A program made the translations under genes and the position numbers. The notes below the pieces were generated by a model. That model searched no databases and was not told where the DNA came from. It worked only from the letters and a program-made list of their open reading frames with translations. From positions 14,985-78,984 of the forward strand of contig CAMBXE010000001.1 in the NCBI GenBank assembly GCA_945871805.1: DNA of 64,000 bases, written 5' to 3'. This DNA is from Rhizobium sp. Q54. GTDB taxonomy: Bacteria; Pseudomonadota; Alphaproteobacteria; Rickettsiales; UBA1997. Below, piece after piece: positions 3,195-10,974 of this stretch (the first letter of the stretch is position 1; every line of letters begins with the position of its first letter).

Positions 3195-4484
3195 TTAGCG
3201 ATTACCAATTTCAACGTAATCCCTTTTGACCTGTCCAGTATAGAGCTGGCGCGGTCTGCCAATTTTAAAGGCCGGGTCTTCAATCATTTCTTTCCACTGA
3301 GAAATCCAGCCAGCTGAACGCGCAATGGCGAAAATTACTGTGAATAAATTAGCCGGAATTCCGAGCGCTTTATAGATGATTCCAGAGTAAAAATCGACAT
3401 TCGGGAAAAGTTTTCTTGAGACAAAATATTCGTCATTAAGCGCAATTTTTTCGAGCTCAACCGCAATACTTAAAAGCGGATCATTCTTGATTCCAAGCTC
3501 AGCCAAAACTTCGTCACAAGATTTTTTCAACACCGCCGCGCGTGGATCATAATTTTTGTAAACACGATGGCCAAAACCCATCAGGCGGAAGGAATCGTTT
3601 TTATCTTTCGCCCGCGCGATGAATTCTGGAATGCGATCTTTAGTGCCAATTTCTTGTAACATCTCGATCACTTCCTCATTCGCGCCGCCATGTGCGGGGC
3701 CCCAAAGCGAAGAAATCCCTGCGCCGATGCAAGCAAATGGGTTAGCACCAGATGATCCGGCAAGGCGCACAGTAGAAGTCGAAGCATTTTGTTCGTGATC
3801 AGCATGCAAGACGAAAATCATTTCCATCGCCTTGGCGATTACTGGCGTAACTTTGTGCGGATAATTTGGCTTATCAAAAAGCATGTGGAGAAAATTTTCA
3901 GCAAATCCGTATTCTTTATTTGGATACATCAATGGCTCGCCGATCGAGTATTTGTAAGCCATCGCCGCGAGTGTCGGCATTTTGGAAATAATTTTGTAAA
4001 CCACGTCCATGCGACCTTCTGGCGTGTGAACATCCATTGTTTCGTGGTAGAAAGCAGAAAGAGATGCAACCGATCCAACCAAGATGGCCATTGGGTGCGC
4101 GCGCCTCGGGAAGCCGCGCAGAAGAATACCAATTTGTTCGTGAACGAGCATGTTGCGAATGATGCCGCTTCTGAATTCGCGGTACTGCGTCGCGTTGGGC
4201 AAATCGTGATTTAACAACAAATAAGCTACTTCAAGAAACTCGCTTTTCTTCGCCAGCTCTTCGATTGAATATCCGCCGTGCCTTAGAAATCCTTGATCGC
4301 CGTCGATAAAAGTAATTTTTGATTCGCATGAAGCTGTAGATAAAAATCCCGGATCATAAGTGAACATTCCGCTTTCTTTGTAGAGCGCCGAAATGTCGAT
4401 CACATCTTGCCCAACAGAGGCTTTACGAATTGGTAGAGAAATTTCCTTACCATTTGGGAGCGTTAATTTAGCGGATTCGGACAT
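3195..4484 (-). CDS. gltA: citrate synthase
   Basis: Signature [15 protein letters not shown] prefer the ATG at 4484 ([12 protein letters not shown]) over the track start at 4532. Confidence 0.95.
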
Positions 4485-4546
4485 AGATTTTTGATTTAAG
4501 ATTTGAGAGTTTGTCGGCTTCCTAAATACCAAAATGTTAATGTTAA

Positions 4547-5662
4547 ATGGTTAATTCCTTGGGCTTCCCAAAATCAGAAAAAGATACCCGCGTTGTCGTT
4601 GCAATGTCCGGAGGGGTCGATTCTTCCGTTGTCGCCTGCCTGCTGAAAGAGCAAGGCTACGAGGTGATCGGCATCACTTTGCAGCTTTACGACATGGGCG
4701 ATGCGCTGAAAAAAAAGAATGCCTGTTGTGCTGGCGTGGATATTTACGACGCCAAAAAAATCGCCGAAAAATTCGATTTTCCGCATTATGTTTTGAACTA
4801 CCAAAATCTTTTCAAAGAGTCGGTGATTGATGATTTTGCGGATTCTTATTTGCAGGGCGAAACGCCAATTCCCTGCATTAAATGTAATCAGTCCGTGAAG
4901 TTTCGTGATTTGCTAAAAACCGCGCGCGACCTTGGCGCAGACTGTCTTGCGACCGGTCACTACGTACAAAGGTTGGTCGGAAAAAATGACGAAGCAGAAA
5001 TGCACAAAGCGGTCGATGAAGACAAAGATCAGAGTTATTTTTTATTTGCGACGACAAAAGATCAGCTCGAATTTTTGCGTTTTCCACTCGGCGGAAATAA
5101 AAAAGAAAAGACGCGCGAAGAGGCTCTGCGCCTAGGTTTAGAGGTGGCAAATAAGCCTGATTCGCAAGATATTTGTTTCGTACCAAATGGTGATTACGCC
5201 GAAGTAATCAAGCGTCACCGTCCGCAAGCTTTCAAGCCTGGTGACTTCATTCACGTCGAAACAAAAAAGATTTTAGGCCGGCATGAAGGCATTATTAACT
5301 TCACTTTGGGTCAAAGACGCGGCCTTGGTATTTCTTATCCCGAGCCGCTTTACGTAGTGAAGATTGATCCAAAAGAAAATGCGGTTTTCGTCGGTGAAGA
5401 AAAGTTTTTACAGAATCACAAATTTAAAATTCGTGATTTGAATTGGTTTTCTAAGACTTTGCCGGGCGCAGAAATTAAAGCTCATGTTCGCCTTCGCTCA
5501 AATCACGCAGAAGAGCCAGCGACAATAAAAATTTTAGAAAATGGCGACGCAGAAGTTGAAATGAAATCAATGACGCGCGCGATTACCCCGGGCCAAGCAT
5601 GTGTGATCTACCAAGATTCTCACGTGCTTGGCGGCGGCTGGATAACTAAAGAAATCGAGTAA
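4547..5662 (+). CDS. mnmA: tRNA 2-thiouridine(34) synthase
   Basis: PP-loop [13 protein letters not shown], catalytic Cys region PCIKCN, 371 aa. Confidence 0.95.
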
Positions 5663-6471: not shown

Positions 6472-6687
6472 ATGCACATCTACATCCTAGCCAGTAAACG
6501 CAACGGCACCCTCTACACTGGCGTCACCAAAGACTTAGAGCGCAGAATCGTCGAACACAAAACCAAACTCCTCCCCGGATTCACAGAAAAATACGAAGTA
6601 ACAAAACTAGTCTATTGCGAAGAAATCCCCGGCGCGACATCAGCAATCGCCAGAGAAAAACAGATCAAAAAATGGAATCGAAAATGA
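6472..6687 (+). CDS. GIY-YIG nuclease family protein, cut short by an in-frame TGA (possible pseudogene)
   Basis: MHIYILASKRNGTLYTGVT...REKQIKKWNRK then TGA. The same frame continues as KLRLIEEHNPEWKDLSEEW up to 6783. Confidence 0.75.
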   Translation: MHIYILASKRNGTLYTGVTKDLERRIVEHKTKLLPGFTEKYEVTKLVYCEEIPGATSAIAREKQIKKWNRK

Positions 6688-6756: not shown

Positions 6757-6873
6757 CCTGGATCCCCGCCTGCGCGGGGATGACGCTGAAAGTAACGCGC
6801 TCAATTCTCGTCCCGTCTGAAAGCAATGCACTCAATTCTCGTCCCGTCATCCCCGCGCAGGCGGGGATCCAGG
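6757..6873. repeat. composite palindromic element (29-bp perfect terminal inverted repeats around 2 x 31-bp direct repeats)
   Basis: cctggatccccgcctgcgcggggatgacg (6757-6785) is the exact reverse complement of 6845-6873. Tandem ctgaaag..ctcaattctcgtcccgt units at 6786-6816 and 6817-6847. Confidence 0.9.
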
Positions 6874-6878
6874 AAGGG

Positions 6879-7850
6879 TTAGGTTAATTGCAAATCGTAA
6901 AATCTTTTAATCTCGTCGCGCACATTTTCTTGACCTTGCGTCACGTTGATTTTTGCGCGGAATTCTGCCGAGCCTTTTAGGCCAGAGCTATACCAGCCGA
7001 TGTGTTTTCTTGCGAGTGGAATAGCAGTTTGCTCTCCGTAGTGCTCAATCATTTCTGCGAAGTGATTGAGAACAATTTCTTTTTGCTCGGCGAGTTCGGG
7101 AGTGGGAATTTTTTCTTCACCTTTTAGATCGGCATTAATCTGCGCAATCAACCAAGGTTTGCCGTAAGCGGCTCTGCCGATCATTACTCCATCTGCCTTC
7201 GAGAGCTCGAGCGCTTTTCTTGCATCGTCAGAATTTTTGATGTCGCCATTGGCGATTACGGGAATTTTTACGGCCTCTTTTACGCGTGAAATTAATTCCC
7301 AGTTGGCGCTGCCGTCATACATCTGACAACGGGTGCGGCCGTGAATGGTGAGCATTTGAATGCCAACATTTTCTGCTTTTTTTGCAAGGCTGGGCGAGTT
7401 TAAATTTTCATAATTCCAACCTAAGCGCGTTTTCATCGTTACCGGAATTTTCACGGCCTTAACCACCGCTTCCATGATGCGCGTGGCGAGATCTTCGTCT
7501 TTCATCAAGGCGCTGCCAGCAAAACTATTTACAACTTTTTTGACTGGGCAGCCGAAATTAATGTCGATGATGTCGGCTCCGAGATCTTCATTTAACTTTG
7601 CTGCTTCGGCCATTATTTCTGGATCACAGCCGGCGAGCTGCACCGACATTGGATAAATCGCATCATCCCTTTCGCATTTTTTCAGTGAGTCGCGTGTTTG
7701 CATGATCATTGCACGTGACGCAATCATTTCTGAAATCACCAAAGGCGCGCCGAATTTTTTTACTAAACGACGGAAAGGTAAGTCGGTTACGCCTGACATT
7801 GGCGCCAGAAGGACGTTGCCTGGTAATGTGATATTTCCGATTTGGATCAT
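6879..7850 (-). CDS. dusB: tRNA-dihydrouridine synthase (DusB/NifR3 family)
   Basis: MIQIGNITLPGNVLLAPMSGVTDLPFRRL. ATG at 7850 forms an ATGA overlap with the upstream gene's stop. Confidence 0.9.
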   Translation of the reverse strand: MIQIGNITLPGNVLLAPMSGVTDLPFRRLVKKFGAPLVISEMIASRAMIMQTRDSLKKCERDDAIYPMSVQLAGCDPEIMAEAAKLNEDLGADIIDINFGCPVKKVVNSFAGSALMKDEDLATRIMEAVVKAVKIPVTMKTRLGWNYENLNSPSLAKKAENVGIQMLTIHGRTRCQMYDGSANWELISRVKEAVKIPVIANGDIKNSDDARKALELSKADGVMIGRAAYGKPWLIAQINADLKGEEKIPTPELAEQKEIVLNHFAEMIEHYGEQTAIPLARKHIGWYSSGLKGSAEFRAKINVTQGQENVRDEIKRFYDLQLT

Positions 7851-9304
7851 GCGAAATAAGGAAGGTAATGCCAGTCGCGGCGTAAGTCTTTGGCGTTGGC
7901 ACACTTGATGCGGCCTGCTTTGAGGCAGTCTTGGATTAGGCGTAAAGTTTTGGTTTGTTCGTGATCGCCAAAGGCAAATCTGTGGCGAATCGACTTGTTT
8001 GCCGTTCTTTTGTTACTCACTAAATTCAGGCAAGAGTGTTGAAAAACCGCTTCGATTCTTTCCTCTTTTTCCATCTCACTGAATTTTTTTGGCATGTAGA
8101 GAATGACGCAAAAGTAATCTTGCTCGAGGCGCCATTTTATTGGTGGCAAGACATTTATTTCAATGGAGTTGACTACCTTATCATAACCACTGCCCTTTTC
8201 TTCAGCGAAGTGTGTTTTGCGCATGATGTCGGCTAGTACTTCGTTTCTGGTTTTGGAGGGATGATCGATCAGGCGATCAGACGAGATCTCTGGCAGCAAG
8301 CCTCCTGGATTGGTGATTTCGATACGATCAGAAAAAATATCGACGGTGACGAAACCGTTATTTTGAGTGTAATCGCGATGGATGATGGCATTGGCTAACA
8401 ACTCGCGAATCGCGATTTCTGGCACTAGAGATTCATTGATGCGACTCGCCTTTTTGATTGATTCGCGATGTGAAAGTAATGATAAGATTTTACTCACTGC
8501 ATCATCCAAAGTTAGGGAATAGCCCTGGTTAAAAAAGATATCTCGTTTGGAAGAAATCTTACTGCTTCCGTCATATTCGGTAATGCGGATGGCGAATTTT
8601 TCATATCCCGGGAAGGCGCTAAAATCCTCGGCACAAAGCAAGACACAAAGATTTGTCGGTAAATATTTTCCTTTGGTTTTTAGCAAAAGTTTGTGATGAA
8701 AAAGATGTTCGTTGAGAGCTTCTTTATTGTTGATCGGAGTTGGGTTGGTTCTCTTTACGAATTCGCTGAAATCAAATAAATCGACCCACTTGGATTGGTT
8801 GCTAATCGGTAAAACCGCGGGTAATTCTTCGTAACGCAACATGCGCGACGAAAGCATCGCAGCACGAAGTTCAGGCTCACTCATTTGCCTAGTGTTTCCA
8901 GCAACTCTGATGTAAGAAAATTCTAATCCTTTGTTTTTTAGACTGACCGGTTTTTGCACCGATTCATGAATGTAAGCTGCTAGAAGTAAGCGTCCGGAAT
9001 GTTTGAATTTTACGAATTCAATTTTGATTTCTGGCTTGAGATTGTGTCGCGCTACATTGCTTAAGGATGAGGTAATGTTTTTTATTTCGCCTTCGCTGCC
9101 AACGCCAATTACTTTTCCGTGATCATCAATTCCATAAACCAAAAATCCCCCTCCAGGAAGATTGGCAAAGGCGGAAAGATGTTTGCTGAGTTTCTCCCCG
9201 TTGGAGGATAGCGCCTCTTTCCAATCGAGTTCGTTTAACTCACAAGGAAAAGGAGCTAGACTTTTTTCTATTAATTCGAGGCAGAGACTTTCTAAGTAAT
9301 CCAT
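7847..9304 (-). CDS. AlbA_2 (Schlafen-like) / HATPase_c_4 putative DNA-binding regulator (the 'RecG-like helicase' annotation family)
   Basis: N-terminus LSAFANLPGGGFLVYGIDD. C-terminus RELLANAIIHRDY, IEITNPGGLL and SKTRNEVLADIM..EEKGSGYDKV, all typical of this family. Confidence 0.8.
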   Translation of the reverse strand: MDYLESLCLELIEKSLAPFPCELNELDWKEALSSNGEKLSKHLSAFANLPGGGFLVYGIDDHGKVIGVGSEGEIKNITSSLSNVARHNLKPEIKIEFVKFKHSGRLLLAAYIHESVQKPVSLKNKGLEFSYIRVAGNTRQMSEPELRAAMLSSRMLRYEELPAVLPISNQSKWVDLFDFSEFVKRTNPTPINNKEALNEHLFHHKLLLKTKGKYLPTNLCVLLCAEDFSAFPGYEKFAIRITEYDGSSKISSKRDIFFNQGYSLTLDDAVSKILSLLSHRESIKKASRINESLVPEIAIRELLANAIIHRDYTQNNGFVTVDIFSDRIEITNPGGLLPEISSDRLIDHPSKTRNEVLADIMRKTHFAEEKGSGYDKVVNSIEINVLPPIKWRLEQDYFCVILYMPKKFSEMEKEERIEAVFQHSCLNLVSNKRTANKSIRHRFAFGDHEQTKTLRLIQDCLKAGRIKCANAKDLRRDWHYLPYFA

Positions 9305-9439
9305 TTAGTAGGGGTTTTGTTGTTTAAATGTGGTGAATGATGTAGTATAGAATGTATTATAGATCAAGTCTTGATTTTGCTGTATAAAACAATGCAGCCA
9401 AATTTTTTACTCTCTGAATGTATTAATAGTTTTAATAGT

Positions 9440-9458
9440 TTTTGGTGCCCCCGGCATG
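9440..9458 (-). repeat. partial duplicate of the tRNA-Arg(CCT) 3' end
   Basis: ttttggtgcccccggcatg is identical to 9517-9535 (last 16 nt of the tRNA including CCA, plus 3 flanking nt). Confidence 0.9.
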
Positions 9459-9519
9459 GAGAAAATGACCTAAACGGTCATTTTCGGCGGCAACATCGGC
9501 CGATCTAAATTTTGTATTT

Positions 9520-9594
9520 TGGTGCCCCCGGCATGACTCGAACATGCGCACATGGTTTAGGAAACCACTGCTCTATCCCCTGAGCTACGGGGGC
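9520..9594 (-). tRNA. tRNA-Arg (anticodon CCT)
   Basis: Reverse complement is GCCCCCG TA GCTC..GAGC A GTGGT TTCCTAA ACCAT .. GCATG TTCGAGT CATGC CGGGGGC ACCA. Cloverleaf folds and CCA is encoded. Confidence 0.9.
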
Positions 9595-9681
9595 TAATGA
9601 AACCCGTCTGGCGTTGCCTCGAGGCTTCGAGGCATGAATTTAAGATCGTAACCGAAAACGACCGTTTTGGGTCGTTTTCTA

Positions 9682-9707
9682 CCCCTTCGCTACGGGGGCT
9701 AATGAAA
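9682..9707 (-). repeat. partial duplicate of the tRNA-Arg(CCT) 5' end plus upstream flank
   Basis: ccccttcgctacgggggctaatgaaa versus cccctgagctacgggggctaatgaaa at 9576-9601. The last 18 nt are identical. Confidence 0.85.
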
Positions 9708-9708
9708 T

Positions 9709-10974
9709 TTATTTACTACCGACGCAGTGATATTCAAACCCCTTTTCCCTCATTTCTTTCGCATCAAAAAGATTGCGTAAATCGATGATTTTTTTGGTTC
9801 TGATTTTTGAAAAATCGAGTGCGCGATATTCTTCCCATTCGGTAACGATTACGATTACATCCGCGTCAGACGTAGCTTCGTAAAGATCTTCAAAGAAAGA
9901 AATATTTTTAAATTCTGCCAATTCACGTTTCGCATTTTCGATCGCGGCAAAATCATGAGCGAAAATTTTTACGTCTTTTTTTGCTAATTCTTTGGCGATT
10001 GTGATTGCTGGCGAATAGCGAATGTCGTCGGTATTTCCTTTGAAAGCGAGGCCAAGTAGTGCGATTTTTTTGGCCGGAACGGCGAGAATTTTTTCAACCA
10101 TTCTGATTTTTCTTTTTTGATTCGAAGCGATTACCGAATCGATCAAAGAGAGCTCAACAGAATTTTCTTTGGCGACATTTAAAATCGCCAAAATGTCTTT
10201 CGGAAAACATGATCCGCCAAAGCCCGGCCCGGGATTTAAAAATTTTTCACCAATGCGCGAGTCTAATCCCACAGCGCGCGCAAGCTGCTTGATATTTCCG
10301 CCAACCGCTTCGCACAAATCCGCCATTTCATTAATAAAAGAGATCTTGGTCGCGAGGAAAGAGTTAGCAGCGTATTTGATTAATTCGGCAGTGATGATGT
10401 CGGTTGCGACTAGTTTTTCTGGCGCAAATTTTTCGTAAATTTCGGCGAAAATTTTTTGGGCTTTTTCATCTTCAACTCCGACAACGATGCGGTCGGGATT
10501 CATGAAGTCATTGATCGCAACGCCTTCGCGCAAAAATTCTGGATTAGAAGCGACGGCAAAATCTAGCAGAGGATTTACCCGCTTAATTAATGCCTTTATT
10601 TTCGCGCCAGTGCCGGCGGGAACTGTCGATTTAGTGACGATTAATTTGTAAGATTTTGAAAGTTCAGCTACTTCTTTTGCCGCAGCAAGAACGTAAGAAA
10701 GATCTGCTGATCCATCTTCATCTTGCGGAGTGCCAACGGCGATAAATACAACGGCAGAGCCATCCAAGCCATCTTTTAAATTTGTTGTAAAAGAAATTTT
10801 TACTTCAGCGAGTAACTCAGAAAGTCCTGGTTCAAAAATCGGAACTACGCCGGATTTTAATTGGGAAATTTTTTTTTCGTCCTTGTCGACGCAAATAACT
10901 TCGTGACCAAGTTTAGCGAAACAAACGCCTGAAACCAAGCCCACGTAGCCGCTGCCAATTACTGTGATTTTCAT
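9709..10974 (-). CDS. ugd: UDP-glucose 6-dehydrogenase
   Basis: MKITVIGSGYVGLV Rossmann N-terminus and catalytic GFGGSCFPKD. ATG at 10974 preferred over the GTG at 10989. Confidence 0.92.
   Translation of the reverse strand: MKITVIGSGYVGLVSGVCFAKLGHEVICVDKDEKKISQLKSGVVPIFEPGLSELLAEVKISFTTNLKDGLDGSAVVFIAVGTPQDEDGSADLSYVLAAAKEVAELSKSYKLIVTKSTVPAGTGAKIKALIKRVNPLLDFAVASNPEFLREGVAINDFMNPDRIVVGVEDEKAQKIFAEIYEKFAPEKLVATDIITAELIKYAANSFLATKISFINEMADLCEAVGGNIKQLARAVGLDSRIGEKFLNPGPGFGGSCFPKDILAILNVAKENSVELSLIDSVIASNQKRKIRMVEKILAVPAKKIALLGLAFKGNTDDIRYSPAITIAKELAKKDVKIFAHDFAAIENAKRELAEFKNISFFEDLYEATSDADVIVIVTEWEEYRALDFSKIRTKKIIDLRNLFDAKEMREKGFEYHCVGSK

Follow-up and report, generated by a model that had tools for sequence, protein, structure and literature searches.

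Partial copies of both ends of a tRNA-Arg(CCT) gene, joined to mirrored hairpins, at a variable locus in an uncultured alphaproteobacterium

Partial copies of tRNA genes are routinely taken as the footprints of mobile elements and are used to delimit genomic islands. Williams is said to have described mobile-element integration as a source of tRNA gene fragments in 2002. The integration of mobile elements is now the accepted general origin of such fragments (PMC9897764), and islands integrated at tRNA genes can accrete in tandem, e.g., the ssrA islands of Dehalococcoides (PMC3146451). In these islands, and in their decayed derivatives such as cis-mobilisable elements (CIMEs), direct repeats of the tRNA end (attL and attR) bracket an insert, the gene is regenerated, and both tandem arrays and empty sites occur. 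The tyrT/tyrV locus of Escherichia coli K-12 (rtT/RttR) is a classical integrase-free precedent for the 3′ side. As we checked in the sequence, it carries three copies of a repeat at a 178-bp spacing, the last of which overlaps the final 19 nt of tyrV. Short extragenic hairpins with compensated stem changes and inverted pairing are in turn familiar from REP/BIME sequences, MITEs, and Rickettsia palindromic elements.

The locus analysed here lies in a 64,000-nucleotide stretch of DNA, hereafter the window, and resembles each of these systems in part. An intact tRNA-Arg(CCT) gene is flanked on both sides by displaced, non-functional copies of its own ends, each joined to a hairpin cassette that we call E, and the two cassettes mirror each other about the tRNA. 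As at tyrT/tyrV, there are downstream units, the nearest one overlapping a 19-nt copy of the tRNA 3′ end, and no integrase. The window has one unit of this kind and a related locus, L011, has three, a likeness of architecture and not of homology: the two systems have no sequence relationship, units are 77 nt long here (~141 nt in L011) compared with 178 nt in E. coli, and E. coli has neither a 5′ counterpart nor a mirrored hairpin. Direct repeats of the tRNA end, a regenerated gene, tandem units, and empty sites are shared with att-bounded islands, and the 3′ repeat reaches the 3′ end of the gene (16 nt plus AAA, exact). Unlike in such islands, the inserts are 58-79 nt long and gene-free, no integrase was found, the repeats reach into the flank of the locus, the variable genes lie outside the repeats, and the 5′ end is also duplicated, in a repeat without counterpart in the att family. 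REP/BIME sequences are marked by a GTAG head, a hairpin, many copies, and a RAYT gene; GTAG directly precedes the stem in the 5′ copy of E only (the 3′ copy has GGAG), and the window holds two copies in 64 kb, not dispersed and each tied to a tRNA fragment. Nor does E share the dispersed copies or the short, fixed-length target duplications of MITEs, since it occurs only at the ugd-tRNA-dus locus and the repeats are 18-31 nt long and vary among lineages. The mirrored two-sided layout is therefore best filed as an unusual form of the known tRNA-end repeats and not as a new jumping element. The features of the window are as follows.

7846..9735, minus strand: horizontally exchanged block, beginning ~27 nt before the end of ugd and taking in the 5′ module, tRNA, 3′ module, spacer, and 485-aa gene up to the dus start codon (identity comparison)
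7847-9304, minus strand: 485-aa SLFN_AlbA_2/HATPase_c_4 (Schlafen-like) gene (Pfam)
9440..9458, minus strand: outer 3′ partial copy, tRNA positions 60-75 (CATGCCGGGGGCACCA) plus AAA, an exact repeat of 9517-9535
9455..9495, plus strand (opposite to the tRNA): 3′ copy of E (covariance model 53.9 bits; RNA folding energy -14.2 kcal/mol)
9461-9485, plus strand: hairpin of the 3′ E, perfect 10-bp stem GAAAATGACC/GGTCATTTTC
9496..9516, minus strand: trailer between the AAA flank of the tRNA and the 3′ E, carrying a 12-nt tail match to the 5′ module (alignment)
9520..9594, minus strand: intact tRNA-Arg(CCT) with encoded CCA (ARAGORN, Rfam)
9603..9643, minus strand: E tail (TTACGATCTTAAATT) and inner leader, the latter holding a 7-bp hairpin (9616-9633; short segments aligned by eye)
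9644..9685, minus strand (that of the tRNA): 5′ copy of E (covariance model 64.6 bits; RNA folding energy -14.7 kcal/mol)
9654-9679, minus strand: hairpin of the 5′ E, perfect 10-bp stem GAAAACGACC/GGTCGTTTTC
9682..9707, minus strand: outer 5′ partial copy, 8 nt of leader (TTTCATTA) plus tRNA positions 1-18, matching 9577-9602 at 24/26 positions

ARAGORN and Rfam (64.2 bits) agree with the initial annotation on the position of the intact gene, and both partial copies that it reported are present. The 3′ copy repeats the final 16 nt of the tRNA and the AAA that follows without a mismatch; by chance, ~7e-5 exact 19-nt repeats no more than 200 nt apart are expected in the 64-kb window. The 26-nt 5′ copy departs from the gene by a D-loop change of TC to GA, which also occurs in the relatives L027 and L055, and is otherwise equal to it. 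The duplicated segments restore both gene ends, as was supposed when the tRNA was first described as regenerated from both sides. Eight independent assemblies (NCBI, ENA, and Logan) agree letter for letter across the intergenic sequence, so the layout is not an assembly artefact, a concern that the initial annotation had itself raised. The window, from an uncultured alphaproteobacterium (G+C content 42%), contains no partial copies of its Phe, Arg-TCT, or Cys tRNAs or of its tmRNA. The tmRNA (62022-62554) is a permuted, two-piece, alpha-type molecule; in its tag as predicted by ARAGORN (ANDNFANDNFELAPATKVAFA) the motif ANDNF is duplicated, which could be a real duplication or a misprediction.

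The consensus of E is AGAAAA, a 5-bp variable stem, a CNAAAC loop, and TTTTCGG. Read from the outside towards the tRNA, both sides have the same order: a partial tRNA end, (T/G)AGAAAA, the 5-bp stem, the CNAAAC loop, the return stem, TTTTCGG, a tail, and the real tRNA end. A similar hairpin had been noted in each insert at the outset, and the hairpin is indeed the same on both sides, but the two inserts are inverted and not direct copies: the local alignment score is 36 in inverted orientation (null mean 12, p <= 0.0005) and 15 in direct orientation (p = 0.15). This inverted similarity runs for 12 nt beyond the hairpin, over CGATCT(T)AAATT (p ~0.01). A covariance model built from nine copies scores E at 54-67 bits on one strand versus 15-17 bits on the other. 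The hairpin motif has two matches in the 64-kb window, both flanking the tRNA, and none in 100 shuffles. On the 5′ side the junction reads GGGG/TAGAAAA directly after tRNA position 18 (GGGG/GAGAAA in L083), and on the 3′ side E abuts position 60 of the outer copy (TTTTCTC/CATGCC). These inner junctions, at positions 18 and 60, are constant in all relatives.

At ~9487-9498, within the 3′ E part, the segment GGCCGATGTTGC may be a degenerate copy of tRNA positions 44-55; its counterpart in L027, on the inner side of the 3′ hairpin, matches positions 44-55 and 62-66 exactly (p ~0.004). Apart from this 3′ module of L027, E and its tail show no significant similarity to the tRNA, which speaks against their being the decayed middle of a tRNA gene duplicated whole in tandem: the collinear by-eye matches TAGA, CAG, and CCTAAAC were not above those of shuffles. 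Group I introns occur in alphaproteobacterial tRNA-Arg(CCU) genes. The Rfam search returned no known RNA family other than tRNA, even at E <= 10, which rules out a remnant of such an intron. The inner leader, between the 5′ E and the tRNA, has a separate 7-bp hairpin (GCCTCGA AGCC TCGAGGC, 9616-9633), at the place of which relatives carry other palindromes. By-eye comparison of short segments shows the inner leader of the window to be similar to the native leaders of L011 and L067 and to the outer leader of L027.

Searches for further copies confined E to a single locus. Across 202 kb from 22 sources of the clade, the covariance model found E only between ugd, the tRNA, and dus. A scan of JGI metagenomes with the 5′-type junction gave 48 matches, five of them with a stem, and all five lie just past ugd beside a 5′ tRNA-Arg fragment. 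GTDB representative genomes gave four chance matches to the E pattern, none with a stem, and searches of IMG/VR, phages, and plasmids gave neither E nor a matching attP; the metagenomes were scanned with the 5′-type junction alone, and the 3′-type (TTTTCTCCATGCCGGGRGCACCA) was scanned in IMG/VR alone. A dispersed hairpin family is thereby ruled out, as copies are confined to the ugd-tRNA-dus locus in all collections searched. The initial annotation had suggested looking for a recombinase with a matching attP. No recombinase was present among the Pfam families of the genes called within ~10 kb on either side, such domains are absent from the neighbouring 434/430-aa and 485-aa proteins, ten further window ORFs are housekeeping genes, and viral, plasmid, and phage sequences supplied no attP.

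Several MITEs were also seen. A palindromic MITE in L012, ~200 nt downstream of the tRNA (4647-4760), contains the E hairpin and tail, the sole copy of E that is not joined to a tRNA fragment. Its junction, GGGG/TAGAAAAC, is the same as at the tRNA, and its hairpin is that of the L027 5′ copy and not that of the 5′ copy of L012 itself. The presence of E within this unrelated MITE, with a GGGG/TAG junction, hints at some mobility. In the window, a palindromic MITE with the terminal repeat CTGGATCCCCGCCTGCGCGGGGATGAC lies at 6758-6872, just past a 71-aa GIY-YIG ORF (6472-6687), and members of the same family adjoin the tRNA-Arg locus in L009, L011, L012, and L068. A second, unrelated MITE of ~200 nt, with the terminal repeat AACCCAGATCAGTCATTAGAAT and TTTAA on both sides, lies directly upstream of the tRNA in L009 (~4345-4540).

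Orthologous loci were collected by way of homologues of the adjacent UDP-glucose dehydrogenase gene (ugd). In all fetched loci the gene order is ugd, tRNA-Arg(CCT), a variable stretch, and dus. Their contents, with ugd DNA identities, are as follows.

Clade A (window and L009 98.6% identical), window: 5′ E, 3′ E, and the 485-aa gene
Clade A, L009/L070: a 434-aa gene, no E, and, upstream, a pair of unrelated palindromic repeats (MITEs)
Clade B (L067 and L082 97% identical), L067: 3′ E only and the 485-aa gene
Clade B, L082: bare tRNA and no gene
Clade C (L011 90% identical to L029/L051), L011: a pair of ~141-nt units, each with a 37-nt tRNA copy, followed by a 3′ E unit, and a 430-aa gene
Clade C, L029/L051: layout as in the window
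L012 (74-81% identical to the window, as are all that follow): 5′ E with a different stem, one L011 A-type unit with a longer trailer, and an E copy inside a MITE
L014: 5′ E
L027: 5′ E and 3′ E, with the stem CAGCC in both
L055: apparently two tandem 5′ modules, at a contig end
L057: 5′ E only
L083: another 5′ variant
L068: bare tRNA, 5 nt past the ugd stop codon

Modules are thus present in some members and absent from others within each of the three clades. Occupied and empty sites of the kind envisaged at the outset do exist: the tRNA is bare in L082, L009/L070, and L068, is accompanied on the 3′ side only in L067 (which lacks the 5′ module) and L011 (which has three tandem 3′ units), and on the 5′ side only in L057 and L012. 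A second type of cassette is ~105 nt long, contains three hairpins, one of them E-like (AAAATGATC/GATCATTTT), and leads into 37 nt copied from tRNA positions 40-76. It occurs in L011 as two tandem units that are ~10% different (2288-2568) and in L012 (4460-4635); its stems appear to covary between L011, L012, and L009, and it has no Rfam match.

The outer limits of the repeats vary: the flank included is 0, 4, 8, or 13 nt long upstream and 3, 4, or 12 nt long downstream (8 nt upstream in the window, 13 and 12 nt in L027, and 4 nt in L057). In L057 (minus strand, ~180-260), the end of ugd runs into the 5′ tRNA copy at a GTTGG microhomology; the ugd stop codon is lost, and the reading frame continues through the tRNA fragment and hairpin for 20 extra amino acids. 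The partial copies match the tRNA of their own lineage, having C3/G70 in the window and T3/A70 in both L027 and L012; those of L012 also carry its TTCGAAT T loop. Because the repeats take in local flank and track lineage-specific tRNA substitutions, a foreign attP is a less likely source than local origin or gene conversion. The derived GA of the 5′ copy is common to the window and L027, whose ugd genes are only ~78% identical, so the 5′ module is old. Since the first 11 nt of this old module appear to have been re-matched to the tRNA, we infer gene conversion. From the window to L027, the modules have diverged as far as ugd has (~77%).

Pairing in the hairpins has outlasted changes in their sequence. 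The nine E copies have four stem types (CGACC, TGACC, TATGC, and CAGCC), yet pairing is perfect, with Watson-Crick pairs in 87/87 cells; four of the ten stem pairs have changed on both sides, and none has changed on one side or been broken. Between the 5′ and 3′ hairpins of the window a single stem pair differs (C-G to T-A), with compensation inside each hairpin, and a long-range duplex between the two sides therefore has two mismatches. The minimum-free-energy fold of 9436-9712 (minus strand) does pair the two outer modules (-109.4 kcal/mol, z = -6.6), but as compensation takes place within each hairpin this long-range fold is a by-product of the inverted repeat and not a conserved feature. 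A consensus scan called no terminator at either hairpin and no promoter within the 5′ module. The T run of the hairpin sits within the stem, paired with the A run as in bidirectional terminators, and the folding energy is ~-14.5 kcal/mol. In the local-origin reading set out below, the E hairpins would most probably act as bidirectional terminator-like structures or as structures that protect RNA ends.

The modules change genomes as part of a larger unit. The block at 7846-9735 is 98-99% identical to L029/L051, whereas ugd is only 87-88% and dus 87.7% identical. This difference between block and flanks shows that the modules travel as passengers of a ~1.9-kb block, and they move between lineages only within this block, which holds the tRNA itself. 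From the tRNA to the 485-aa gene, L067 shares 99-100% of its sequence with the window, against 89% in ugd, and its leader is unrelated. The spacer of L082 is absent from L067, so the tRNA-dus interval was replaced and not inserted into. The tRNA-dus slot is a hot spot of gene swapping: L009, with a ugd 98.6% identical to that of the window, has an unrelated 434-aa protein without a Pfam domain in it, and other slots are empty. The block with the 485-aa gene has spread between lineages that are ~12% diverged, and the 485-aa protein has weak PADLOC matches to the pAgo and Aga (pAgo-associated) models. One of the initial proposals for this locus, a miniature element aimed at the tRNA, is not supported, given the restriction of E to one locus, the lack of a recombinase within ~10 kb on each side, the local flank in the repeats, and movement inside the block alone.

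How the modules arose can be read in several ways. The reading towards which we lean, tentatively, is that the architecture is old and tied to the locus. A small number of duplicative rearrangements in place would have produced it, the hairpins would have been kept, the copies homogenised with the tRNA, modules lost or multiplied through their repeats, and the whole spread by homologous exchange. The anatomy, the restriction to one locus, the covariation, the polymorphism, and the block transfer are observed; the founding mechanism, gene conversion, and the role of the hairpins are inferred. Some observations fit this poorly. The inner junctions, in the D loop and T stem, are the same in all lineages; the 16-nt 3′ repeat and the 37-nt repeats of L011 and L012 have the sizes of typical integrase att cores; occupied and empty sites occur inside single clades; and the tandem units of L011 are ~10% different, with unrelated first 20 nt, so that by their sequence they look more like separate insertions than a recent duplication. 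Scars of integrase att sites, as in CIMEs, would account for much of this. Elements would have integrated at the T arm/3′ end, at the anticodon arm, and, unusually, at the D loop, each supplying a replacement gene end; internal deletions would have left attP-proximal hairpins between attL and attR, and the tandem units would be successive integrations. The 3′ repeat extends to the CCA end, the 37-nt repeats begin at the anticodon stem, L011 has an array of three units, close relatives have both empty and occupied sites, a variable gene slot adjoins the tRNA, and the accepted view traces tRNA gene fragments in general to the integration of mobile elements (PMC9897764). We regard att scars as a serious but less probable rival, given that integrases are missing from the ~10 kb to either side, that neither IMG/VR nor phages nor plasmids yielded a matching attP, that up to 13 nt of locus-specific flank lie within the repeats and the variable genes outside the segments that they bound, and that the L082 spacer missing from L067 points to replacement and not insertion. 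The partial copies, moreover, lack the loop nucleotides expected at a loop crossover, and a mirrored hairpin on both sides would take two element types with a common arm. To our knowledge, regeneration of the 5′ end is not a habit of integrases, which also counts against this explanation.

A fixed inner junction with a variable outer boundary (5′ repeats of 18-31 nt, 3′ repeats of 19-28 nt) is what would be seen if E were an active miniature element, mobilised in trans by an enzyme encoded elsewhere in the genome, that enters the D loop or T arm of tRNA-Arg(CCT) and makes a long, variable target duplication that restores the gene; the survivors would be those duplications that pass the gene end, since only these restore the tRNA. 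The copies always equal the resident tRNA, the 5′ and 3′ hairpins of one genome are more alike than same-side hairpins across genomes, and the MITE-borne E of L012 is preceded by the same GGGG. L055 may have two tandem 5′ modules, but these lie at a contig end and may be an assembly artefact. Such an element seems improbable: no copy was found away from the ugd-tRNA-dus locus in any searched collection, there is no known candidate enzyme, the derived GA shared by distant lineages indicates descent and not repeated fresh insertion, and the modules of the window and L027 are as diverged as their ugd genes. The mirror symmetry of E about the tRNA, the passage of a tRNA-containing block between lineages, and the L067 breakpoint exactly at the tRNA 5′ end would suit an element bounded by terminal inverted repeats (the E copies) that carried a complete tRNA-Arg into the resident gene as a replaced core, leaving the outer fragments as the old gene, with one-sided states produced later by deletion between repeats or by crossover inside the tRNA. 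The fragment of tRNA positions 44-66 in L027, however, is on the inner side of the 3′ hairpin and hence not outside the element, the transferred block reaches the dus start, far past the 3′ E, one-sided states are common (seven lineages have 5′ modules and four have 3′ modules), and no transposase was found, which makes this a decidedly improbable origin. The pairing of the outer 5′ and 3′ modules in the minimum-free-energy fold raises the further prospect of an RNA processing stem: in a read-through transcript, a long helix of acceptor-stem halves and ~30 bp of E would surround the pre-tRNA and be cut, e.g., by RNase III. In favour of this, all four genes (ugd, tRNA, 485-aa gene, and dus) are closely spaced on the same strand, but compensation within the hairpins leaves two mismatches in the long-range helix of the window, many lineages have a single module only (L067, L011, L057, and L012), and any inverted repeat automatically gives a high z-score. 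We give a processing stem very little credence.

If the architecture is indeed old and of local origin, it may have been founded by illegitimate or template-switch recombination at the tRNA gene, which would have copied the gene end and its flank, after which the hairpin of one module would have been copied, inverted, to the opposite side of the tRNA. Short-tract gene conversion would keep the partial copies identical to the resident tRNA. Recombination between direct repeats would delete or multiply modules while always restoring an intact tRNA, and homologous exchange would carry the whole unit between lineages inside the ~1.9-kb block. The maintained hairpins would keep the tRNA apart from its neighbours, ugd on the upstream side and the variable gene on the downstream side.

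Should E prove to be a self-propagating miniature cassette specific for tRNA-Arg(CCT), it would be a mobile element of a new kind, restoring the gene into which it inserts, acting on both ends of a tRNA, and needing no adjacent integrase. If the local origin that we favour is true, the locus would serve as a warning that tRNA-end repeats can arise and persist without integrases, and it would indicate that a tRNA beside a hot spot of gene swapping can be insulated by maintained hairpins.
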